This document shows positions 3,044 to 59,532 of a DNA stretch of 64,000 bases, piece after piece. A program made the translations under genes and the position numbers. The stretch's first letter is position 1, and the number at the start of each line of letters is the position of its first letter. Origin of the DNA: a virus; UHGV virus genome UHGV-0275551. One strand, written 5' to 3'. The notes under the pieces were generated by a model that did not search any database, was not told the DNA's origin, and saw nothing but the letters and a program-made list of their open reading frames with translations.

Positions 3044-3415
3044 ATGAAAGCTAAGAGTGCAAAAGACTTTTATTGCTTCCTACAATCCTATATCAATTCC
3101 GTGCAAAATGGTGAAAGGTACAACATTAATGATGTTATCCCAACACCTTTGACATGGAGACTCAGTAAATGGCCTGAAGAAGATATTACACCAACAAGCA
3201 AACAACGCACCTACAAACCTGAAATCAATATTCCAGATTCTGAGAATCTATTATATCCAATGTTCCATATTGTTGGTCTTGGAAGATTCCTTATGGATAT
3301 CCAGTATGTAATTGGTAAAGGTTATAAGGTTAAAGGTATTGTTGTTGGTGATGTATCTCCGCATCACAAAGGTTATTTTAGACTAAACGCACATTTAGAG
3401 GCTAAAAAGAAATGA
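3044..3415 (+). CDS. hypothetical protein, paralog of the N-terminal domain of the next gene
   Basis: 123-aa ORF; shares motifs with 3412-4296 N-terminus (W..PE.DI, YKP, FMD(I/L)QY). Confidence 0.55.
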   Translation: MKAKSAKDFYCFLQSYINSVQNGERYNINDVIPTPLTWRLSKWPEEDITPTSKQRTYKPEINIPDSENLLYPMFHIVGLGRFLMDIQYVIGKGYKVKGIVVGDVSPHHKGYFRLNAHLEAKKK

Positions 3416-4296
3416 TTAAAGCAAAGACTTACCCAGACTTCAAAGAGTTTGTGAAGGGTTTCATTGCAAATGTAAAGGCTGGTAAGAGATATGATTTTAG
3501 AACATATCAAGAGGCTATTTTACCACTTACCTATAGTTCATATTGGCCTGAAGCTGATATTGCAGAAGTTGAGAAGTTTGACTACAAACCAGACTACAAA
3601 GTTCCATTTAGTGATGAATTGCTTTACAGTGTTGGTGCACAGATGAGAACTGCTGATTTCTTCATGGACTTACAATATGCAATTATCAATGGTAAAGACG
3701 TTGATACAGTTTATTGTGAATGGCTGGCAAGAGTTAAACCATTCTCAATGCTGAATGCTAAGTTGAAGGATGCTATCAAGCCACCAGCAATCACTCAGCA
3801 ACCAACCAATCAAACAGTAAATGAAGGTGGCACACTTACTCTAAGCATTCTAGCAACTAACGCCACTGGATATCAGTGGAAGAAGGATGGTGAGGACATC
3901 CCTAGTGCCAATTCTGCAACTTACACAAAACAGTCAGTAGCACCTTCTGACGCTGGTTCATACACTTGTGTTGTATCTGGAGAGGGTGGAACAAGTATTA
4001 CCTCAGATGCGGCAACAGTTACTGTCAACGCACTTCCGGTAATCACTCAACAGCCAACCAATCAAGAAATCACTGAAGGTGAGACTTTAACACTGAATGT
4101 TGTGGCAACAGGTGCAACAGGTTACCAGTGGAAGAAAGGTGAGGAAGACATCCCCGATGCAACTACTGCAACTTACACCAAAGAAGGTGCAACCACTGCT
4201 GATGCAGGAAGCTACACCTGTGTAGTTACTGGTGCAGGTGGCTCTGTAACATCTAATGCAGCAACAGTTACAGTTAACCCAGCAGGGGAGGCATAA
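3412..4296 (+). CDS. protein with two C-terminal Ig-like (I-set-like) tandem domains
   Basis: Two ~95-aa repeats with TQQPTNQ...TLTL...GYQWKK...ATYTK...DAGSYTCVV...ATVTVN. Confidence 0.65.
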   Translation: MIKAKTYPDFKEFVKGFIANVKAGKRYDFRTYQEAILPLTYSSYWPEADIAEVEKFDYKPDYKVPFSDELLYSVGAQMRTADFFMDLQYAIINGKDVDTVYCEWLARVKPFSMLNAKLKDAIKPPAITQQPTNQTVNEGGTLTLSILATNATGYQWKKDGEDIPSANSATYTKQSVAPSDAGSYTCVVSGEGGTSITSDAATVTVNALPVITQQPTNQEITEGETLTLNVVATGATGYQWKKGEEDIPDATTATYTKEGATTADAGSYTCVVTGAGGSVTSNAATVTVNPAGEA

Positions 4297-4760
4297 TGCA
4301 ACTCTCAAGAAAAGGTTTAGAAGCTATTAAGTTCTTTGAAGGTCTTAAGCTTGAGGCTTACGAAGATTCTGCTGGAATCCCCACAATTGGGTATGGGACA
4401 ATTCGTATTGGTGGGAAGCCTGTTAAGATGGGTATGAAGATTACCGCTGAACAAGCTGAACAGTATCTTCTCGCAGATGTTGAAAAGTTCGTTGCAGCAG
4501 TGAACAAAGCCATCAAGGTTCCAACTTCTCAGAATGAGTTTGATGCACTTGTAAGTGAAACATACAACATTGGTATCACAGCTATGCAGGACTCTACATT
4601 TATCAAGCGCCACAACGCTGGTAATAAGGTAGGTTGTGCAGAAGCTATGCAGTGGTGGAACAAGGTAACGGTCAAAGGTGAGAAGGTCACTTCAAACGGT
4701 CTTAAAAACAGACGCAGAATGGAAGCTGATATTTACCTTGACAGTGTATACCCAAAGTAA
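4296..4760 (+). CDS. lysozyme / endolysin (GH24, T4-lysozyme-like)
   Basis: N-terminal EGLKLEAYEDSAGIPTIGYG matches the GH24 catalytic Glu/Asp/Thr region; SD GGGGAGG. Confidence 0.85.
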   Translation: MQLSRKGLEAIKFFEGLKLEAYEDSAGIPTIGYGTIRIGGKPVKMGMKITAEQAEQYLLADVEKFVAAVNKAIKVPTSQNEFDALVSETYNIGITAMQDSTFIKRHNAGNKVGCAEAMQWWNKVTVKGEKVTSNGLKNRRRMEADIYLDSVYPK

Positions 4761-6902: not shown

Positions 6903-7121
6903 ATGAAAAAACTAACTACAGTTGAAGATTACTACAAACTGTCCCTATTAGAACAATATCGTAGGAGTCAGAATATCAGAAAATGCTATGGTAAACACGC
7001 TGAAGGTGACTTTTACCGTTGCTACGATGCAGATTTAAAAGGTGTAACACCTAGAGGGAAAGTCCTGCAAAGACTTGTTGACCTTGAGTGGAACAAACGA
7101 TTGAGAGGGGTTGGGAAATGA
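6903..7121 (+). CDS. hypothetical protein
   Basis: 72-aa ORF. Confidence 0.45.
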   Translation: MKKLTTVEDYYKLSLLEQYRRSQNIRKCYGKHAEGDFYRCYDADLKGVTPRGKVLQRLVDLEWNKRLRGVGK

Positions 7122-7621
7122 TTTACGAAGAAAGATACAAGATAGATTATCAGAAGACTGGTCATCACACTTCACTAAGAGTAACCAAACCAAATGGGGA
7201 TACTGGTATCATAGCACATTTTGGTGGTGATTATTGGTACGGTACAGGTTGCTTTGAAGGCTACACTCAAGAATACTTAAAAGCTTTCTACAGAGACTTT
7301 ACAAATGACTACAACAGGGTTGTTGAAGAGAAGAATAAGTGCATTAAGCATGAATACCATGCCAGAGGTTGTCTGAATATTGTTATGATACTGGTTTTCT
7401 TCTTAGCAACATTACTAGCCGTATCAGCAATCAGCTACATAGCTCAAGACTTGACCATTACACAGATTACTGCAAAGGTACATGATGTTTGGTACTTGTA
7501 TGCTGTTCCTTTAGCTGGTATCATCATCTCACTAATAAGGTTCAGAGTTCATAAGAAACGACTTAAGGACTCTGAGGTTAAACTTGAAGAGGTAAGTAAA
7601 GAATGCAACCTACAATTATAG
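7118..7621 (+). CDS. hypothetical membrane protein (C-terminal TM segments)
   Basis: Track start is GTG 7088; ATG at 7118 overlaps previous stop (ATGA) and has a purine-rich SD; hydrophobic C-terminus. Confidence 0.5.
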   Translation: MIYEERYKIDYQKTGHHTSLRVTKPNGDTGIIAHFGGDYWYGTGCFEGYTQEYLKAFYRDFTNDYNRVVEEKNKCIKHEYHARGCLNIVMILVFFLATLLAVSAISYIAQDLTITQITAKVHDVWYLYAVPLAGIIISLIRFRVHKKRLKDSEVKLEEVSKECNLQL

Positions 7622-15372: not shown

Positions 15373-15705
15373 TCAACAGTTTTGTTTTCGTTTGCTCAAC
15401 TCTTGAACAATTACAGTATGATAGTCTTTTAAGTCACTAATATTTAAAGCATTTATCAGAGAATTATAATCATCGACTAATTGAAAATCATCTTTGAAAA
15501 TGTCGCTGATTTGATAAGCTCTCGCCCTGAATCTGAAGCTCATTTCTAACCGCTTTAATTGTTCATCGCTCAACCGCTCTAGAAAGCTCATTACAAGGCT
15601 ATTGCTAACCTGTTGTGTGATTGCCTTATTTGCTAGATTATAGGCTTTATATGCCTTATAGAGCGCGAAAATGGCAATGATTGCAGTGATACCAGTCATT
15701 AACAT
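15373..15705 (-). CDS. hypothetical membrane-anchored protein
   Basis: 110-aa ORF, hydrophobic N-terminus, SD AGGAAG; overlaps upstream gene. Confidence 0.55.
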   Translation of the reverse strand: MLMTGITAIIAIFALYKAYKAYNLANKAITQQVSNSLVMSFLERLSDEQLKRLEMSFRFRARAYQISDIFKDDFQLVDDYNSLINALNISDLKDYHTVIVQELSKRKQNC

Positions 15706-17361: not shown

Positions 17362-18147
17362 TTAGTTCTTTGCGTCTAAGAAGGTAACTTCTGGTGAAGA
17401 GAAGACCGTCTCGATATCCTCATCAGTTCTTGCATAAATATATGTATCTGCATCACTGCCAAATGTTACGGCTATCCTGTGATTGCTCTTCGACAGGTGG
17501 GTAACTAGAGCGTTACTTAGAGACATCTTCTCAACCGGAGGGTTACTTTGATGTATCTTACCTTTTCTTCGTCTGAAGAGGGTAACTGTATCATCTTTGA
17601 ACGTTACTACACCTGCAAAGTATTCTGGTTCACAGTAGTTATTCCAACCTGAGCGTAACTTGTGGTACATCTCTCCTTCGTAGACATACAGATAAACATC
17701 TACACTCTTCATCACCTGATTAATGATAACTGTGACGGCTTGAGGGTCAAGTCCACCGATACCTGCACCAATCATAGGTAAACCAACCTTCTTCAACTGA
17801 TTAACTTCACAGTATCTGTTAAGCTGTTTCAAAGATGACTCTAAAGCACTGTATCGGGCATCTTTACCAGTCTTAAGCTGAGTGTAAAGGTTAGCTATAC
17901 GACCTTGTTTTAAACGTGCTACAGAGAAATTACCCAGTAAATTTTCACAAGGTTTGTGTCCTATACCACCTGCATATAGATAAACTTCTGTATCGGTCTC
18001 ATATGCTTTTGGGTAAAGTTTAGAAATCTTGTCAGCGATACCTGCACCCATTAAGTTCATACAGTTGCAACCGTGACCGATGATGTCAAACTTACCTTTA
18101 TCAAATGCGGCAAAGATATCACCATTAATTATTTTTACAATACCCAT
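17362..18147 (-). CDS. macro-domain protein (TARG1/DarG-like fold) with C-terminal extension
   Basis: N-terminus GDIF...GHGCNCMNLMGAGIA and later LPMIGAGIGGLDP match macro-domain signature positions; SD GGGAGAG. Confidence 0.55.
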   Translation of the reverse strand: MGIVKIINGDIFAAFDKGKFDIIGHGCNCMNLMGAGIADKISKLYPKAYETDTEVYLYAGGIGHKPCENLLGNFSVARLKQGRIANLYTQLKTGKDARYSALESSLKQLNRYCEVNQLKKVGLPMIGAGIGGLDPQAVTVIINQVMKSVDVYLYVYEGEMYHKLRSGWNNYCEPEYFAGVVTFKDDTVTLFRRRKGKIHQSNPPVEKMSLSNALVTHLSKSNHRIAVTFGSDADTYIYARTDEDIETVFSSPEVTFLDAKN

Positions 18148-18700: not shown

Positions 18701-18889
18701 CTAATGATTCTGAATGGATTCTTCAAGAAGGTCAACACAATCTTTAAAAGTTTTTGTATCACTTCTTGTTCCTATCATTGCGATTGTTCCATATAGCCAC
18801 TTACCATTGCCATAAGATACTTGTGCTACGCCAACTTCTTTGCCTTTCTCGTAGTAAACAGCTACAAAGTCTCTTCCGTTAATCTGCAT
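18701..18889 (-). CDS. hypothetical protein
   Basis: 62-aa ORF. Confidence 0.4.
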   Translation of the reverse strand: MQINGRDFVAVYYEKGKEVGVAQVSYGNGKWLYGTIAMIGTRSDTKTFKDCVDLLEESIQNH

Positions 18890-18891
18890 AG

Positions 18892-19164
18892 TTACTTCCT
18901 CGTTTTGAGAACTGCTAAGATTTCTTTAGAGTCTGGTAAGAACCATGTGTAGTGATTCTCTTTGATTTCTGGATGAGTGTCAACCTTTATTTTGCACTCT
19001 TTACCAACATGCTTAAGCTGTGCTGTGATACCTTGCATAAAGATGTGACACATTACATTATCCATAATCGTAGGTAAGAAATCAATCCTCATGTAAGTAT
19101 CTTTCGGTCTCGGTAGAAGTAAGTAACCTTCTGTGTAGAAAGTTTCATCATTACTTTGTGTCAT
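18892..19164 (-). CDS. hypothetical protein
   Basis: 90-aa ORF. Confidence 0.5.
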   Translation of the reverse strand: MTQSNDETFYTEGYLLLPRPKDTYMRIDFLPTIMDNVMCHIFMQGITAQLKHVGKECKIKVDTHPEIKENHYTWFLPDSKEILAVLKTRK

Positions 19165-19430
19165 TACTGCTTATTCCCTAATAAAATCATATCAATAAGG
19201 TTATTAGCTTTGATTGTGCACTGGTAAAATCCATCACGATAGAACTCAAGGGCTGCTGCCACATCGCTGCCAGTATTACCTTTGACAGTGAATCTTGACT
19301 CTTCTTGAGTGTACTTGTCACCCTCACTTACTTGGGAGTTTTTGAATGTACTGTTCACTTTGTTCGTTGAACACCCTGACATAATTATCAGTAACACAAA
19401 CATTATAAAACTCTGGCTTAGTTTTTTCAT
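19164..19430 (-). CDS. putative o-spanin (outer-membrane lipoprotein)
   Basis: Signal peptide with lipobox (IIMSGC); starts inside the previous gene in another frame. Confidence 0.5.
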   Translation of the reverse strand: MKKLSQSFIMFVLLIIMSGCSTNKVNSTFKNSQVSEGDKYTQEESRFTVKGNTGSDVAAALEFYRDGFYQCTIKANNLIDMILLGNKQ

Positions 19431-19671
19431 ATGTTAGTACCTCTTTTGTATGCTTATTCTTAGCAAGCACATCTTTCAAATCATTTTTGTAATTGGTGCT
19501 GAGTGTGGCTAAACCTTCCTGATAAGCATCTTTGGCAACACTTATTAGTTTCTCGTTATTTAGCTCAGTTTCAGCAACTTGGTAGTCTCTGTAAGAGTAT
19601 CCTCCCCAGACACCTGTCCCAACTAAGAAAACAATTATGAAAGTAGCTTGACAGAACTCTTTAAATGTCAT
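19324..19671 (-). CDS. putative i-spanin (N-terminal TM, periplasmic helical domain)
   Basis: N-terminal TM segment; overlapped by the lipoprotein ORF in the manner of overlapped spanin pairs. Confidence 0.5.
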   Translation of the reverse strand: MTFKEFCQATFIIVFLVGTGVWGGYSYRDYQVAETELNNEKLISVAKDAYQEGLATLSTNYKNDLKDVLAKNKHTKEVLTYEKTKPEFYNVCVTDNYVRVFNEQSEQYIQKLPSK

Positions 19672-19685
19672 TTAACAATCTCCTG

Positions 19686-19713
19686 AAATGAAAAAGGCTC
19701 CCGAAGGAGCCTG
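19686..19713 (-). terminator. rho-independent terminator
   Basis: Minus-strand GGCTCC-uucg-GGAGCC followed by UUUUUCAUUU. Confidence 0.65.
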
Positions 19714-19723
19714 TATCTTAACC

Positions 19724-20188
19724 TTAACCGAGGACTTTAGCAAGGATATTTGCAGCCATCGAAGAAGCTTTTGCAGCAGCAACTACGCCAGCTTTGACAG
19801 TGCTATCCTTAATAGCAGATACCGTTGCAGCATCAGTAAAGAGATAAGTGATTGTTTTGGAACCACTTGTAAAGGAAAGCATAAGAGTAGTTTCCAGATT
19901 GAAAGAGCGATACGGAGCACCTTCTTTAACGATACCTTCAGCACCTAACTCTGAAGCCTTACCCATATCATAGATAGTCATCAGGTTTTCTTTGTGTGCA
20001 GTCGTTGAACCAACACCTTTTACGTGCTTCTTAACGTTCAACAATGCACGATATTCACGAATGCTACCATCAGCTTTTACATTAACAGCACGGAAAATTT
20101 TACCTTCAAAGTTACCTTGAATCATTTTACGAACTACTTCAGATTTGTTTGCCGTATCGTCCAGTGCTACCGTAATGATATTGTTCAT
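19724..20188 (-). CDS. hypothetical protein
   Basis: Track start is TTG 20203; ATG at 20188 has SD GAGAGAAG. Confidence 0.5.
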   Translation of the reverse strand: MNNIITVALDDTANKSEVVRKMIQGNFEGKIFRAVNVKADGSIREYRALLNVKKHVKGVGSTTAHKENLMTIYDMGKASELGAEGIVKEGAPYRSFNLETTLMLSFTSGSKTITYLFTDAATVSAIKDSTVKAGVVAAAKASSMAANILAKVLG

Positions 20189-20199
20189 AAGTTCTTCTC

Positions 20200-20895
20200 T
20201 CAATGTTTAACTAACATGGTTTTAATGTGTGGAAGGATTCTGTTTACCTTCTGAACATTCTTCTCTGTATCTTCTATAAAACATACTATATCAAAGTAAG
20301 GCAGAATGCAAGACTGAATCATCCTCACTTTCAAACTTTCTGCACTTATAGAGTTAGTCCCAAAACCACGCATAAAAAGCATGTAATCATGCTCTATGTA
20401 ATGCCTTAAAAACATCTCAGTAGGTATTCTCTGAGATTCACCTCTTGCTGTCAATAGTCCAATGGCAGCGTGATTAGAAATTGCATCAATAATATTGAAA
20501 ACATACGTTGGTTTTGCACTTACAGAGTCAAGCAAATTGGTGTACTGTGAAAATGACCCATCAATCAGTTCCGTTGAGCAATCTTCGTGATTAAAATTTG
20601 TCAGAACACCATCAATATCTGCTAAGATGAGGTTACCTTTTTCTACAAGGTCTTTATTGACTATGACTAAACTGTCACGTCTTACACCTATAGTTTGTCC
20701 GGTCTCTTTGTCCACAACGTTCACAATTGGTTCTGATGTGTGGAACTCTTCAAGTGAACATACAACTTCTCTTGCAGTATCTTCAAAATCCCTGCACTGT
20801 TCTGGAGTCCATACACAGGAATCAAGACCTAACTCATGAGGATGCAAGTCATAAGCGTGGCACAGGACTTCATCAGACTTTCTTAATTTTTTCAT
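20200..20895 (-). CDS. hypothetical protein with HAD-like phosphatase motif (DIDGV)
   Basis: 231-aa ORF; C-terminal half has ILADIDGVLTNF; function tentative. Confidence 0.35.
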   Translation of the reverse strand: MKKLRKSDEVLCHAYDLHPHELGLDSCVWTPEQCRDFEDTAREVVCSLEEFHTSEPIVNVVDKETGQTIGVRRDSLVIVNKDLVEKGNLILADIDGVLTNFNHEDCSTELIDGSFSQYTNLLDSVSAKPTYVFNIIDAISNHAAIGLLTARGESQRIPTEMFLRHYIEHDYMLFMRGFGTNSISAESLKVRMIQSCILPYFDIVCFIEDTEKNVQKVNRILPHIKTMLVKH

Positions 20896-21421
20896 GATTT
20901 ACCTTAGAAAGGTTTGTTGCAAATTCACATTGAGCGATAACTTTCATATTGTTATAGACATCTTGAGAGTATTTCTTAGCTTTAGGGATTTTGTACGAAT
21001 ACCCAGCATTATATGATGCTAAAACTTTTTGTAAAGTCTTCTTTGACTTTGGCTGACCATGCACCTTTGTCCAAAACTCAAGCTCTTTGTGCGTTTCCTT
21101 CGCAGCATAGTCAAAATCTTTTAAGAGTTTCTTTTTAGCCACACTAGGACTAATTTTGTTACGCTTTACAACAGTCTTCAAGTGATTCTGGAAGATACCA
21201 TAGTCATGGGTCTTTTTATTTTCTACCTTCAGACCTAACTCTGACTCTTGTAAGGCTATAGCTGCTAGAGTGATACCCCAACCTTTACCCATGTTATTCT
21301 CACCATACTGGTAAGCTTTTAACATGTTCACTTTTTGACTAATTGATAGCTCTGGGCAGTCAACTGCATAAGATAAGTGTGCTGTAAACATTAAGCACAA
21401 ACCTAGAATCAATTTCTTCAT
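20873..21421 (-). CDS. secreted lytic-transglycosylase-like protein (SLT-like motifs)
   Basis: Signal peptide; QESELG, DYGIFQNH and SYNAGYSY resemble SLT motifs; SD AGGAG. Confidence 0.45.
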   Translation of the reverse strand: MKKLILGLCLMFTAHLSYAVDCPELSISQKVNMLKAYQYGENNMGKGWGITLAAIALQESELGLKVENKKTHDYGIFQNHLKTVVKRNKISPSVAKKKLLKDFDYAAKETHKELEFWTKVHGQPKSKKTLQKVLASYNAGYSYKIPKAKKYSQDVYNNMKVIAQCEFATNLSKVNHEKIKKV

Positions 21422-21478
21422 TGGTTCTCCTGTTTAGTTTATCGTGACAACAATTATACAGCACTCTGCACAAAATAC

Positions 21479-21510
21479 AAATAAAAAAGGCCGCCGAAGC
21501 AGCCTTTTAA
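21479..21510 (-). terminator. rho-independent terminator
   Basis: Minus-strand AAGGCUGC-uucg-GCGGCCUU followed by UUUUUUAUUUG. Confidence 0.65.
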
Positions 21511-21521
21511 GAAATTACTTA

Positions 21522-22631
21522 TTAGATTTCACGTTTACGTTGAGAGATGAGTTCACCAGCAGTGCCAACGATGACATGCAAAGCTTCAGTCTTACCGTCC
21601 CATGCTTCCAGCACTTTACGTTGATTATCAACGATTGCTGCAACTTCATAACGAGAGGAACGCATCTTCATATCATTGTAATCAGTTGGAACAGATACAA
21701 CATCTCGTGGATGTACGCGAACCTTCAGGATTGTATCACCTGAGAAGCAACGAACATAATCCCAAGCACCAACATGAAGACCTTGAGAGCAAGTTACGTT
21801 ACGGTTATTATCAACCATCCAACGTGGCATTTCTACAATGTTACCCAAATCATTAGGCACTTTGTAGGTGTGAGAGTCAACCAACTTGCCTTCACGAGTA
21901 GAGACTTTCTTCCAACCAATGATGTAGCCTTCTTCATCAATTTCAACATCAAGGTGAGATACAAATCCCCAAAGTTGTTCTACAGAATCTTTAGATGGGT
22001 TTTCCATCAGTTTTTCGAAGAACATTACAAGTCGTTCAAAACCTTTATCGCCAGTTTTCATCATGTGAAGAATACGGTCAACCAGAGTAGAACGCATCTC
22101 AACAGCACCGTAGAATAGCTTGTCGCCTTTGATTGTGATAGCACCCTGAGTGAAGTTTTCGATAGACTTACGAATGTTCATCAGTTCAAATGCTTTCTTG
22201 AACTCACCTTTCACAACATGAACTACAATCTCTTGATAGTTCGGATGAGTAGACTCAACAATTTCAGATTCTGAACCATAAGTCATAATTACAGAATCAC
22301 CAGTAATCATGTACTCAATCTTGTCATCTTTCTGCATAGCTTCGTGCAGTTTATTTACTGGAGCTTTCTGTACAGTGTCTTTAACGACCTTTTCAACTGG
22401 TTTGCCAGCTTTCTTTTTAAAAGTCTTAGCAACTTGTTTCAAAGTCTTCGTAGCTGGTGTAGAAGTTGCCTTCTTCTTGCCTTTTAAGGTTGCTTCATGA
22501 CGCTCTACAGCACGACCAACTGAACGGGTTGAAGTATTGAACTTCTGTGCAATAGCTGTTTTAGTCAGCTTACCTTCTTTAACCAGTTTGTAAATTTCTG
22601 CGTCAATCTGTGCTTTAGTTTTAGTAGTCAT
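21522..22631 (-). CDS. rIIB: rIIB-like protein (N-terminal HTH, Lys-rich linker)
   Basis: Immediately downstream of the rIIA-like gene; size and adjacency fit rIIA-rIIB pairs; HTH-like segment near N-terminus. Confidence 0.35.
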   Translation of the reverse strand: MTTKTKAQIDAEIYKLVKEGKLTKTAIAQKFNTSTRSVGRAVERHEATLKGKKKATSTPATKTLKQVAKTFKKKAGKPVEKVVKDTVQKAPVNKLHEAMQKDDKIEYMITGDSVIMTYGSESEIVESTHPNYQEIVVHVVKGEFKKAFELMNIRKSIENFTQGAITIKGDKLFYGAVEMRSTLVDRILHMMKTGDKGFERLVMFFEKLMENPSKDSVEQLWGFVSHLDVEIDEEGYIIGWKKVSTREGKLVDSHTYKVPNDLGNIVEMPRWMVDNNRNVTCSQGLHVGAWDYVRCFSGDTILKVRVHPRDVVSVPTDYNDMKMRSSRYEVAAIVDNQRKVLEAWDGKTEALHVIVGTAGELISQRKREI

Positions 22632-22710: not shown

Positions 22711-25077
22711 TTAATCGTAAATTGTTGTACCTTCTGGAACACATTTCACATTAAAGCCTAAAAACTTACTCACTTCGATAGGTGATACTTTATTCCAATC
22801 TAAGTGTGAAAGCAAGAAGTTTTCTTGTTTTCTTTTTGAAAGATAGTTTGTCAGCTTGATAACCATGCGGTCACCTGCTTTTTTAATCTTTTTGTACAGT
22901 TTTGTGTCATTATCAAGGCATGACTTCAAATCCTGAAGAACACTGATAGTGTAAGTGTATGCAAACGGTGCAGCCACATACTGAATCTTACCGAACATTG
23001 CCTCAACAGCATCTTCATTCCCTTCTAAGAAGATTGTCTTAATAGTATCCCTTGAATAACAATACCCGCGAGAAATCTTCCTGTTATTGAACGTAAAGTT
23101 TCTGGCAATAATCCAACTGCTTGTAAGGTCGAGGACACCATCCATGTAGATGCGTGTCATATACCTGTTATGGTTAATCCAATGAACATCAGTTAAGCTG
23201 TCGTTCAAGAGCTTCTCATCTACTTCAATCCAGTCTTCTGGTATCTTTTTCCAATTTGCTTTTCGGAAAACATAGACTGTCTTGCCTGTAACATTAGCAA
23301 CTGACTTAGCTACATCCTCTGGAGATGAGCAAAAACATCTACCATCAACTGTGTCACCTACTGCCTTAATATAAAGCTGAGGTTCTTCAATTGTGTCTAA
23401 GTCTTCTGACACCTCTTTGTATGAAGCTTTAGTTTCTGCTGGAACAGCTTTCCAGAGTTTTACAACACCCCTTACAGCTTCTTTACGCTGATAGTGGTGT
23501 TCCTTATCAGACATCTTCACAATCTTTAACAAGCTTTTATCAAGTTTGTGTAGATTGATTAAATCATCTAACTCTTTTTCAGTCGAGAATACAAACACAA
23601 TGCCATTGTATCTGTGGAACAGGCCTGACTCGTTAGCGTAGTCTCGACATGCACCACGCAAAATTTGATTGCGTCCTACAGTCTTCTCAGTACCGTTTTT
23701 ATTGCGACGGTCATTAATCACGAACAAAAACTGTTCAATTTGGCTTTTACGCATTGCACCAAAGATATTGAACATGCTTGCCTCTTGAGTGTAGGAAAGT
23801 GCTGTTGCACGAATCTTACTCTCTAAAGAGTTGAACTTGACATAAGCAACTGGGTCATAAAGATAATCTACTTTAGGGATATTGTTCCCGTTCCTATCAA
23901 CCTTAATATTGCCTTTACCGTCACGTTCATAAATGACTGAGCCGTCTTCTGCGTAGATAATTCCACGACGAATGTTTAACAATTCTTCTTCCAGAGAATC
24001 AAGCTTAATGCCTCCCCACTCTAGCTTTGGACACACAGCATTAAACATCTCTCGTGAGTTCAAACGTAGCTCTGCATAAGCCTGTGCAGCATCCATGAGT
24101 GTAGGTTGGCTATTAACTTTCTTGATAACATCCTTTGTAATTGCTTCAGTTATCTTTTTGGTAGCCTCGATGATAACATTTTTTGTCGTATCATTCATCT
24201 GCAATGCTTCACGAGAAGCTGCTATAGCAACTGAACCAATAGGCATGTAGATGTTTACAAGGTCTACGCTCCTACGGAAAAACTCTGGCAAGACTTTGAA
24301 GAAATCATCACCAAGTAATGCTTCCATGTTCACTGGATAGGCAATATTACCCATCACCACATTAAACTCTGTCCTGTTACCACTAGAACGCCAGCTTTGC
24401 TTATGAATCATGGCATCGTAAACACCTTCTTCACGGGCAATGACGTTCATATCTGCTAATACATCGTCGTACTCAATATTACTTTCTGGTTTTACAGTGA
24501 AGTATGAGTACACATTTCCAGCTTCTTCAAAGAACTTTGAGATACGGTGGTCAGCAACTGCCACACGTACAGCTAAACCATTAGGTTCTTTTGTTGGGTT
24601 AGTGGTCAGTTTAGTTACTTGAGGGATACCATTCTCAAGATAAACAGAGTACTTATTAACAACACCATCAACATAGCTAGATACTGTGAATGACTGAGCA
24701 ATTGCAAATGGGGATTTTGAGCCGACACCCATTGCACCAATGTAGTCATTAGAGTCATTCTTCGTAGAAGCCCCGTAGTTTAGGTACAAACTCATAACTT
24801 TATCATGAGTCAATCCAGTTCCAAAATCACGAACTTCAAAGTAAGGCTCAAAACGAGTAGGTAAATGCACATGGAACGGGATGTTCTCTTTTCCAGCTTC
24901 TTTCTGAGCATCTACTGCGTTACATGACAGTTCACGAATCACTGCCCTTTCTTTAAAGGTATATACACCAGAACTCAAAAGGCTGAACATCTCAGGTGTC
25001 ATTGTAATCTGTGCTTGAGACGTCTCTAAAGAAGTTGAACTCTTAATCACTTCTGCGTGGTCATTTACCATGCGCAT
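22711..25077 (-). CDS. rIIA: rIIA-like protein with N-terminal GHKL (Hsp90-like Bergerat-fold) ATPase domain
   Basis: N-box IRELSCNAVDA, G1 box RDFGTGLT, G2 box IGAMGVGSKS; 788 aa; followed by rIIB-like gene. Confidence 0.5.
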   Translation of the reverse strand: MRMVNDHAEVIKSSTSLETSQAQITMTPEMFSLLSSGVYTFKERAVIRELSCNAVDAQKEAGKENIPFHVHLPTRFEPYFEVRDFGTGLTHDKVMSLYLNYGASTKNDSNDYIGAMGVGSKSPFAIAQSFTVSSYVDGVVNKYSVYLENGIPQVTKLTTNPTKEPNGLAVRVAVADHRISKFFEEAGNVYSYFTVKPESNIEYDDVLADMNVIAREEGVYDAMIHKQSWRSSGNRTEFNVVMGNIAYPVNMEALLGDDFFKVLPEFFRRSVDLVNIYMPIGSVAIAASREALQMNDTTKNVIIEATKKITEAITKDVIKKVNSQPTLMDAAQAYAELRLNSREMFNAVCPKLEWGGIKLDSLEEELLNIRRGIIYAEDGSVIYERDGKGNIKVDRNGNNIPKVDYLYDPVAYVKFNSLESKIRATALSYTQEASMFNIFGAMRKSQIEQFLFVINDRRNKNGTEKTVGRNQILRGACRDYANESGLFHRYNGIVFVFSTEKELDDLINLHKLDKSLLKIVKMSDKEHHYQRKEAVRGVVKLWKAVPAETKASYKEVSEDLDTIEEPQLYIKAVGDTVDGRCFCSSPEDVAKSVANVTGKTVYVFRKANWKKIPEDWIEVDEKLLNDSLTDVHWINHNRYMTRIYMDGVLDLTSSWIIARNFTFNNRKISRGYCYSRDTIKTIFLEGNEDAVEAMFGKIQYVAAPFAYTYTISVLQDLKSCLDNDTKLYKKIKKAGDRMVIKLTNYLSKRKQENFLLSHLDWNKVSPIEVSKFLGFNVKCVPEGTTIYD

Positions 25078-25105: not shown

Positions 25106-25282
25106 TTACTTATTAAACATTTTACCAGAACCACCACACATAGGGCAACAACCTGCTCTTGTATACCCTTCCCCATTGCAGTAATCACACTTCTTGTACT
25201 CTGCATAGTACTTGCAAAGAAGGTAAACAAATACTGCTACGCTGCCAAGTGACAGTAAAATTTCTATCCAATATGCTTGCAT
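25106..25282 (-). CDS. small membrane/zinc-ribbon protein (58 aa, below the track cutoff)
   Basis: N-terminal hydrophobic helix then CDYC...CCPMCGGSG. Confidence 0.35.
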   Translation of the reverse strand: MQAYWIEILLSLGSVAVFVYLLCKYYAEYKKCDYCNGEGYTRAGCCPMCGGSGKMFNK

Positions 25283-34673: not shown

Positions 34674-34880
34674 TTAAATCTTTTTAGAAAACTTAGAAAC
34701 GAGTTTTCTCAGTTTTTCAGTGATGCCTAACTGTATCTCTAATATTTCAAAGATAACCCATAGTAACATGGCTCCAAACAATGAACCTTGTTCAAAATCA
34801 GTAAATAGGTTAACAACAAGCATACCAATCACAATGGCTGGTGCATCAACAACCAGACCTTCCCAAAGGCGTTTAAGCAT
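34674..34880 (-). CDS. small two-TM membrane protein
   Basis: 68 aa, two hydrophobic helices. Confidence 0.45.
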   Translation of the reverse strand: MLKRLWEGLVVDAPAIVIGMLVVNLFTDFEQGSLFGAMLLWVIFEILEIQLGITEKLRKLVSKFSKKI

Positions 34881-58935: not shown

Positions 58936-58975
58936 AAAAGGCTCCCGTAAAAAGGAGCCTTAAATTTTATTTTTC
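58936..58975. terminator. bidirectional intrinsic terminator between convergent units
   Basis: GGCTCC-cgtaaaaa-GGAGCC flanked by A-run upstream and T-run downstream. Confidence 0.65.
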
Positions 58976-59338
58976 AGTATTCTTTGTGTTCTTTTCAGTA
59001 ATAGCTTGCAAGGCTGATACTGATTGAGCCAGATTGTTCACACTGTCAGAGAATTTATCAAGAGTCTTAGTAAGTTTTGCATTCTCACCCTTAACATTCT
59101 CTAACTGAACTTTCTGGTTCTCCATCCCTAGCTGAACCAGTCTCATGTCAGACTGTAAATCACGAATAGCTGAGTAATTAGATTTGCTATAATTATCTAG
59201 CTGCTGTAACTTTGTTGTGACAGACACTTCTTGCTTACCATCCGAGACTTGCATGGTGGTATACATCCCAATAACACTAAAAATACCAACTACAATTGCA
59301 CCAATATTATTTTTAAAAGCTTCCTCTAGCCACTTCAT
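58967..59338 (-). CDS. membrane-anchored coiled-coil protein
   Basis: 123 aa, N-terminal TM then heptad-like region; SD GGGGGAG. Confidence 0.5.
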   Translation of the reverse strand: MKWLEEAFKNNIGAIVVGIFSVIGMYTTMQVSDGKQEVSVTTKLQQLDNYSKSNYSAIRDLQSDMRLVQLGMENQKVQLENVKGENAKLTKTLDKFSDSVNNLAQSVSALQAITEKNTKNTEK

Positions 59339-59532
59339 TTATTCTCCCCCTTAAAAGCTTTTTCTAAGTTATCTACGAACTCATCATCAATAGGTGTGTC
59401 TGTTTTACTCGCAAGATATCTTGCAAGCTTAAAGAACACTTTCTCAATCATGTATTCACTTAGAAGGGATAAAATGAGTTTCCAGAAGAAGCTACCTAGA
59501 TTTTTTAGAAGAATTGCTAGGATTGTAGGCAT
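59335..59532 (-). CDS. small membrane protein
   Basis: 65 aa, hydrophobic N-terminal half. Confidence 0.45.
   Translation of the reverse strand: MPTILAILLKNLGSFFWKLILSLLSEYMIEKVFFKLARYLASKTDTPIDDEFVDNLEKAFKGENK

Follow-up and report, generated by a model that had tools for sequence, protein, structure and literature searches.

The 64,000-nucleotide stretch of virus genome UHGV-0275551 analysed here (the window) raises the question of how a phage is equipped to lyse its host when its lysis genes do not sit together. The original prediction described a membrane-anchored protein gene overlapped in another frame by a lipoprotein gene, as in overlapped spanins, and a secreted protein with motifs of the soluble lytic transglycosylases (SLT), all far from a GH24 endolysin. 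The dispersal is real, since the spanin pair and the SLT-like protein both lie far from the endolysin gene. We consider it very probable that the window carries a scattered, T4-like lysis set, made up of a spanin pair, a distant GH24 endolysin, a probable holin elsewhere and an orthologue of T4 Vs.1 that acts as an accessory enzyme. A megablast search with positions 18800-21600 matched 258 phage records, of which 248 align collinearly with 80% or more of the query, and the top matches were the E. coli Felixounavirus phages KhF3, KhF1, XTG1 and heid (97-98% identity). The window is part of the genome, about 88 kb in size, of a Felix O1-like myovirus (Felixounavirus).

The membrane-anchored protein gene is an open reading frame at exactly the coordinates first proposed for it (minus strand; Table 1). 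Its product has one N-terminal hydrophobic segment (residues 6-24 of 115 in a hydropathy scan), with Lys4 on the N-terminal side, and the same single-segment layout is found in six homologues. A full-length profile match (residues 1-115, E 1.4e-41) places the protein in PHROG 1152, annotated "Rz-like spanin", and the orthologue is annotated as the inner-membrane subunit (i-spanin) in phages heid, Moogle and Sf14. Near the C-terminus the family conserves the motif P-x-F-x-N-x-C-x-T-D-x-Y-x-R-V-F-N-E. N90, C92, Y97 and N102 are invariant in an alignment that includes Erwinia, Proteus, Yersinia and Klebsiella phage homologues.

The lipoprotein gene, which would encode the outer-membrane subunit (o-spanin), also has the coordinates originally given and shares 107 nt with the i-spanin gene in the +1 frame. 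Its reading frame starts MKKLSQSFIMFVLLIIMSGC, and a ribosome-binding site (AAAGAGG) lies 8-9 nt 5' of the ATG, inside the i-spanin gene, where it is kept in all loci compared. In a rule-based reading the lipoprotein signal is MKKLSQSFIMFVLLI-IMSG-C20-S21, and the serine at +2 is compatible with sorting to the outer membrane. C20 and C71 are invariant in the o-spanin alignment, and the lipobox is also present in distant homologues. The profile match of the protein is to PHROG 4180 (unnamed; E 3.3e-50); a second, weak one (E 5e-4) is to PHROG 456, "Rz-like spanin". It has 88 residues and ends in GNKQ before the stop, while all 29 relatives from IMG/VR have 89 residues and end in GNKQQ. Several GenBank records start the o-spanin at a downstream ATG, giving 64-73 residues (heid 19164-19382, EcoM2 2157-2378, Sf14 773-967). 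The start in heid is Met17, so that the protein opens with the lipobox and has lost its whole signal peptide. The full-length start, with its ribosome-binding site, is the one used for Moogle and for ORF7 of Felix O1.

Alternative-frame reading frames of o-spanin size are common in AT-rich phage DNA, and the truncation or omission of the o-spanin in some GenBank records would suit the idea that the lipoprotein frame is a chance, untranslated frame within and behind the i-spanin gene. The pattern of conservation makes this explanation vanishingly improbable. We compared 29 related loci from IMG/VR with 76-100% i-spanin identity, and computed variability from 28 distinct sequences. The o-spanin reading frame, its MK(K/R)L leader, its (M/I)SGC lipobox and its ribosome-binding site are intact in all 29. 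In the part of the i-spanin gene that codes in its own frame only, variable sites number 22, 14 and 59 at codon positions one, two and three (80 of each). Past the i-spanin stop, the o-spanin frame has 16 of 53, 8 of 53 and 46 of 54. Within the overlap, 24% of sites vary, versus 40-44% in the single-coding flanks, codon periodicity disappears, and nucleotide diversity (pi) is 0.052, versus 0.117 and 0.152. Because third-position variation marks each frame in its own part and variability is about halved where they overlap, both frames appear to be translated and selected. Moreover, o-spanin homologues at 26-40% identity in other genera always occupy the same +1-frame overlapped position. Judged by this variation, the overlapping lipoprotein frame is a real gene under purifying selection. 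The concern that the lipoprotein frame might not be translated, raised with the original prediction itself, is thus answered as far as sequence allows.

Homologues in other phages point to what the pair does. A tblastn search with the o-spanin found 319 phage records, and the distant homologues are in Erwinia Kolesnikvirus, Pectobacterium and Proteus Gorganvirus phages, a Klebsiella phage and a P2-like Yersinia phage. The o-spanin gene starts in the +1 frame, within the 3' third of the i-spanin gene, in each of the seven phages examined (five genera or groups). In the P2-like Yersinia phage vB_YenM_324 the gene order is holin, endolysin, I-spanin, O-spanin. Proteus phage 2207-N35 and Klebsiella phage e270.1 have both homologues, overlapped, directly 3' of genes matching holin and endolysin PHROGs. 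Each partner has at least one periplasmic cysteine (i-spanin Cys92, o-spanin Cys71, both invariant), which fits the rule that spanins carry a periplasmic cysteine for homotypic intermolecular disulfides (PMC6139136). The match to PHROG 1152, the lipobox, the +1 overlap and the homologues within cassettes all support the overlapped two-component layout originally proposed. The two genes are predicted to encode a two-component spanin of the overlapped class.

Several results weigh against this assignment. No Pfam spanin model matches either protein (E<=0.01), NCBIfam likewise gave no meaningful match, and we found no experimentally tested member of PHROG 1152 or PHROG 4180 in the literature. The mature o-spanin (68 residues) is free of proline, unlike lambda Rz1. 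A single-sequence AlphaFold2 model of the i-spanin has helices at residues 27-72 and 103-111, with a mean predicted local distance difference test score (pLDDT) of only 52.7, too low to establish a helical periplasmic domain. BLASTP of the pair against T4 PseT.3/PseT.2 aligned the signal-peptide region alone, with no detectable similarity, and the comparison with P2 LysB/LysC was not significant in BLASTP and reached a probability of 10-12% in hhalign, a marginal similarity. Since there is no similarity to T4 and only a marginal one to P2, the pair would work like the T4 and P2 spanins while standing outside the T4 sequence families and probably outside those of P2.

The missing proline-rich region of Rz1 and the lack of experimental data for the family also leave room for another envelope function, such as superinfection exclusion or receptor masking in the manner of T5 Llp or T4 Imm/Sp, and so do the distance of the pair from the endolysin, its early/middle operon and its translational coupling to small early genes. 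Against such a function, homologues of both partners stand in the spanin position of holin-endolysin-spanin cassettes in three unrelated phages, and PHROG 1152 is a spanin family. The +1 overlap, the single conserved cysteine in each partner and the outer-membrane-sorting +2 residue fit the definition of a spanin. Nor is the location telling, because the proven T4 spanins likewise lie in the early region beside pseT. The window genes stand outside a lysis cassette, with the endolysin gene 14.4 kb off on the other strand; the same holds for T4, so a cassette is not required. We regard a different envelope function as very unlikely and retain the spanin assignment.

The secreted protein, with its SLT-like motifs (QES, GIFQ and SYNAGY), is encoded exactly at the positions first reported. 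Its leader can be read as n-, h- and c-regions MKK, LILGLCLMFTAHL and SYA/VD, with cleavage at the slash and small residues at -3 and -1 (a rule-based reading). A hydrophobic segment spans residues 4-22, and comparable leaders occur in T4 Vs.1 and other homologues. The protein matches PHROG 600 (E 1.6e-57), as does T4 Vs.1 (E 2e-68). Homology to T4 Vs.1 extends over the full length at 31-33% identity (tblastn 30.7%, E 1e-8; hhalign probability 99.7%, E 6e-26), and by tblastn homologues occur in at least 2,129 phage records, mainly of T4-like phages, Vi01-like Ackermannviridae and Ounavirinae. The Felix O1 RefSeq orthologue, ORF3, is labelled "hypothetical 20.7 KD protein in vs-regB intergenic region". 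On this evidence the gene encodes an orthologue of T4 Vs.1.

Among 15 sequences, down to 30% identity, seven residues do not vary (E59, G63, Q78, Y137, N138, G140 and Y151), and S60, G75 and S136 show 90% conservation or more. The seven are counterparts of the motifs E-S, G-x-x-Q, A-Y-N-x-G and Tyr in family-1 lytic transglycosylases, and T4 Vs.1 and the Vi01 homologue retain the catalytic motifs as well. An AlphaFold2 model has a pLDDT of 85, with a core above 95 and low confidence for residues 1-19. Its top Foldseek matches in the PDB are g-type lysozymes, a GH23 chitinase, Slt Cj0843, EtgA and MltD (probability 0.97-1.0, TM-score about 0.5). The best PDB profile match of the family is EtgA, a type-III-secretion lytic transglycosylase (E 1.2e-4); a PDB search with the single sequence gave no match, and the profile alone reached EtgA. 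Less favourable is the score against the Pfam SLT model PF01464, at 19.0 bits below the cut-off of 21.3. Three of the four homologues scanned pass it (T4 Vs.1 25.1 bits; the metagenomic P0015 and P0019, 32 and 29.4 bits), and the Vi01 homologue, at 20.9, is also below. The product is thus predicted to be an exported GH23 enzyme with intact catalytic motifs, whose physiological role is unassigned.

The original prediction called this protein lysis-related. A muralytic fold is indeed predicted, but a role in lysis was an assumption, and nothing else ties the protein to lysis. One could nevertheless propose that it is the true lysis effector, a Sec-exported endolysin of the signal-peptide or signal-anchor-release type that builds up in the periplasm and is activated when the membrane is de-energised. 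Such an enzyme would explain why no canonical holin accompanies the GH24 gene, and no holin has been proven in Felix O1-like phages (PMC3185647, PMC6486253). The predicted signal peptide, the intact catalytic motifs, the GH23 fold and the position of the gene, on the spanin strand and 1.2 kb upstream of the pair, would also agree with it. Against this, the phage also encodes a distinct, conserved GH24 endolysin that is cytoplasmic, and the hydrophobic segment of the Vs.1-like protein has a normal cleavage site, unlike a signal-anchor-release anchor. The Vs.1-like gene lies in an early/middle block beside rIIB, starts its own unit after a terminator, and is orthologous to T4 vs.1, an early-region gene between regB and vs. 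T4 lysis depends on e, t and the spanins. An effector role is therefore improbable, and the protein is most likely an accessory peptidoglycan-remodelling enzyme, not the lysis endolysin. We also considered, and rejected, a virion-associated wall-degrading enzyme, in view of the signal peptide, the early-region context and the absence of Gp3 from the 17 virion proteins identified in Felix O1 (PMC3185647).

Our literature search on Vs.1 function returned nothing beyond a 2006 comparison of T4-like genomes that noted a marginal SLT match of vs.1 (PMC1524935). By analogy with EtgA and VirB1, there is an outside chance that the family is a dedicated "space-making" lytic transglycosylase, exported by Sec, which reshapes the host wall during infection and on which efficient lysis depends. 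If so, it might open the peptidoglycan mesh for spanin bridges, for example, or condition the wall under lysis inhibition, and its presence in the same gene string as the Felix O1-like spanins would be functional, not accidental.

The endolysin had been placed about 15 kb away on the opposite strand; the gene lies on the plus strand, and the measured distance to the spanin pair is the 14.4 kb given above. Its start overlaps the stop of the gene for a 294-residue protein (3412-4296, plus strand) with two immunoglobulin-like repeats that matches "tail protein" and Hoc-like head-decoration families. Because of this overlap, the endolysin gene appears to form part of a string of structural (late) genes. 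When all open reading frames of the window were scanned for hydropathy, neither the region within about 2 kb of the endolysin nor the small frames flanking the spanins yielded a membrane protein, in line with the initial remark that no holin is evident nearby. The search elsewhere that had been suggested did yield a candidate in the same window, at 58967-59338 on the minus strand.

The candidate is 89% identical to gp79 of phage vB_SflM_004, annotated as a holin (PMC7925395), and many Felixounavirus and Mooglevirus records name its orthologues "holin" or "putative holin". It is preceded by a 65-residue open reading frame (59335-59532) with a hydrophobic N-terminus. The Felix O1 paper listed gp79, gp116, gp118, gp119 and gp131 as holin possibilities (PMC3185647), and the Meda announcement identified no holin (PMC6486253). 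On the negative side, the candidate falls in PHROG 4038, which is unnamed, and is unlike any characterised holin, including T4 holin T, to which it has no similarity. A PHROG and Pfam search of every small membrane protein in the window gave no match to a named holin family, and three further membrane proteins could compete for the role, at 7088-7621 (plus strand), 34674-34880 and 15373-15705 (both minus strand). The product of 58967-59338 is probably the holin of this phage, an assignment that is a guess, and we list it as putative. The protein encoded at 7088-7621 (167-177 residues, PHROG 4343, unnamed) has two C-terminal transmembrane segments and a charged tail; lying 2.3 kb 3' of the endolysin gene on the same strand, it is the membrane protein closest to it. 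That encoded at 34674-34880 (68 residues, PHROG 4532, unnamed), within the ribonucleotide reductase cluster, has two hydrophobic segments and a Lys-rich C-terminus, a topology like that of class II holins.

Table 1. Positions of the spanin, endolysin, holin and Vs.1-like genes of the window and of neighbouring features
Feature	Coordinates	Strand	Basis and remarks
GH24 endolysin, 154 residues, free of signal or anchor sequence	4296-4760	+	Pfam Phage_lysozyme E 1.2e-40; PHROG 7 endolysin E 1e-57
o-spanin precursor (predicted), 88 residues	19164-19430	-	Lipoprotein signal peptide, lipobox I-M-S-G-C20, Ser at +2, invariant Cys71, 68-residue mature domain
Dual-coding overlap, 107 nt	19324-19430	-	o-spanin in the +1 frame of the i-spanin, running 160 nt beyond the i-spanin stop
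i-spanin (predicted), 115 residues	19324-19671	-	N-terminal transmembrane anchor, periplasmic C-terminal domain, PHROG 1152
Intrinsic-terminator-like hairpin, GGCTCC-UUCG-GGAGCC followed by U5	19695-19712	-	Terminator scan, fold; directly before the AGGAG ribosome-binding site of the i-spanin
Conserved protein, 159 residues, function unassigned	19724-20203	-	PHROG 2267 E 4e-50; between the kinase homologue and the pre-spanin terminator
"Polynucleotide kinase" homologue (HAD phosphatase-like half of T4 PseT), 231 residues	20200-20895	-	PHROG 3970 E 9e-135
Vs.1-family secreted GH23 (SLT/goose-lysozyme fold) protein (predicted), 182 residues	20873-21421	-	Signal peptide residues 1-19, catalytic Glu59 (codon 21245-21247), Cys22/Cys166
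Strong intrinsic terminator after rIIB	21485-21508	-	Terminator scan, fold; z-score -3.9
rIIB homologue	21522-22631	-	PHROG 609; heid annotation; directly upstream of the Vs.1-like gene
rIIA homologue	22711-25077	-	PHROG 612; heid annotation
Putative holin, 123 residues	58967-59338	-	One N-terminal transmembrane segment (residues 11-29), coiled-coil-like C-terminal domain; last gene of the tail-fibre operon

The order of features on the minus strand is rIIA, rIIB, the strong terminator, the Vs.1-like gene, the kinase homologue, the gene for the 159-residue protein, the second terminator-like hairpin, i-spanin, o-spanin and a series of small genes, the first of which begins at the final base of the o-spanin stop codon. 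Coordinates around the spanin block are shared by the window and heid 13383-63000. The end of the Vs.1-like gene is overlapped by the gene for the kinase homologue. The latter aligns weakly in BLASTP, to the phosphatase half of T4 PseT alone, including the DxDG motif (ILADIDGVL); no P-loop was seen on inspection of its sequence, and it may be a phosphatase-only relative. The 159-residue protein has no Pfam or PDB match. Just upstream of rIIA, a 58-residue protein (25106-25282, minus strand; PHROG 3931, unnamed) carries a transmembrane segment at its N-terminus and, after it, a Cys-rich, zinc-ribbon-like CxxC...CxxC tail. Records named "Campylobacter phage A126/A132" (MG065668.1, MG065664.1 and others) and one "Staphylococcus" record are 98-99% identical to this Felixounavirus and are probably mislabelled or contaminated deposits.

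The terminators bear on when and how strongly the genes are expressed. Since the strong terminator follows rIIB, the Vs.1-like gene opens a new transcription unit. The pre-spanin hairpin ends 24 nt 5' of the i-spanin ATG and is kept in 27 of 29 related loci and across Felixounavirus and Mooglevirus. In Erwinia phage phiEa104 (Kolesnikvirus), just upstream of its position 2281, the hairpin is preserved by compensatory stem changes (GGACTC/GAGTCC). Between hairpin and i-spanin gene there is no room for a sigma-70 promoter, and a sigma-70 consensus scan found 26 sites versus 19.3 +/- 4.9 expected in shuffled sequence, no excess. By implication, the spanins are expressed either by read-through or from a promoter of an unrecognised type. 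Of these we infer read-through, with a lowered level of expression that would be tolerable because spanins are inert until the wall is removed.

We propose the following scheme for lysis. The i-spanin would be anchored in the inner membrane, and the o-spanin, made from the internal +1-frame start, would be an outer-membrane lipoprotein. By analogy with lambda Rz/Rz1 and T4 PseT.3/PseT.2, their C-terminal regions would meet to form a bridge spanning the periplasm, and homotypic disulfides, made by the one conserved periplasmic cysteine of each partner, would stabilise it. The peptidoglycan mesh would keep this bridge inactive. The holin, probably the product of 58967-59338, would release the cytoplasmic GH24 endolysin, which would destroy the wall, and the bridge would then fuse the inner and outer membranes. 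Placing the spanins in an early/middle operon behind a leaky terminator could be harmless because they do nothing until the wall is gone. The Vs.1-like enzyme would reach the periplasm by the Sec pathway. The data show the structure of the genes, the selection acting on the two spanin frames, the families to which the proteins belong, the fold with its catalytic motifs and the positions in the genome; where the proteins are located, whether they form a complex and fuse membranes, when they act and which protein is the holin are inferred.

Much of this layout is familiar. Dispersal of lysis genes in Felix O1-like phages has been published (PMC3185647, PMC4319497, PMC6486253): Whichard 2010 reported that holin-lysin cassettes are absent (PMC3185647), and the Meda announcement likewise stated the dispersal (PMC6486253). 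GenBank records annotate these very genes as i-spanin, o-spanin and "putative lysin". The scattered T4-like lysis layout of the window is correct but already known (Whichard 2010, Moogle 2015, Meda 2019, Kongari 2018, GenBank). What we add is modest: the evidence for selection on the overlapping frame, the link between this spanin family and canonical cassettes in other phages, explicit Vs.1 orthology with a GH23 fold, the conserved pre-spanin terminator, and the location of an annotated holin candidate in the window. The importance hardly goes beyond correct annotation, including that of GenBank o-spanin starts that remove the signal peptide. The holin of Felix O1-like phages, a group with uses in diagnostics and biocontrol, and the role of the widespread Vs.1-family GH23 enzyme are questions recognised before.

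Among known enzymes, the specialised GH23 lytic transglycosylases of the EtgA/IagB/IpgF type are, like the Vs.1-like protein, small (150-190 residues) and single-domain, with a signal peptide. Identity is about 17%, and the window protein differs in being phage-encoded with no associated envelope-spanning machine known; a functional similarity is conjecture. The likeness to T4 Vs.1 is much closer. In addition to full-length homology, the two share size, signal peptide, SLT motifs and an early-region location. Their gene neighbours differ, being regB and vs in T4 and rIIB and the kinase homologue in the window. Cys22 and Cys166, found in Felix-type phages, Vi01 and some metagenomic members, are absent from T4 Vs.1. 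The Felix O1 record labels the orthologue of a 261-residue window protein (17362-18147, minus strand) as a homologue of T4 Tk.4 ("17.5 KD protein in tk-vs intergenic region"), and Moogle labels it a Macro-domain phosphatase. In T4, tk.4 and vs.1 are near-neighbours with only vs between them, and relatives of both lie within one 4-kb Felix-type block.

P2 LysB/LysC resemble the window spanins in their overlapped architecture, and the P2-like Yersinia phage has the spanin family of the window in the LysB/LysC position. PHROG 456, to which the window o-spanin has the weak match given above, contains P2 LysC (E 1.7e-31), and one o-spanin homologue matches the Pfam LysC model PF23793 (E 5.8e-4). 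The difference is that LysB/LysC lie within a lysis cassette. With T4 PseT.3/PseT.2 the likeness is in position: in both phages the spanins lie in the early region within about 0.5 kb of a pseT-type gene and far from the endolysin (PMC6139136). The T4 holin gene t, after gene 38, and the candidate holin gene of the window each close a cluster of tail-fibre genes, and rIIA/rIIB and Vs.1 homologues are present in both. PseT.2, a validated o-spanin, is also structured and not proline-rich (PMC6139136). In contrast, the T4 spanins belong to PHROG 739/812 and those of the window to PHROG 1152/4180, and the T4 genes are separate while the window genes overlap. The T4 o-spanin has two periplasmic cysteines and the T4 i-spanin none, versus one in each partner here.

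The closest comparison is with Felix O1 itself. Kongari 2018 listed Felix01/FO1a/UAB_Phi87, FSL_SP-010/012 and phiEa104/phiEa21-4 among overlapped two-component spanins (PMC6139136). The Felix O1 ORF6/ORF7 pair and its orthologues in Moogle, Mushroom, Sf14, heid and others have 76-100% (i-spanin) and 78-99% (o-spanin) protein identity to the window pair. Gene order from rIIA to the o-spanin, including the terminator, and the overlap itself are the same in Felix O1 and the window, and apart from a window o-spanin that is one codon shorter, there is no difference of substance.

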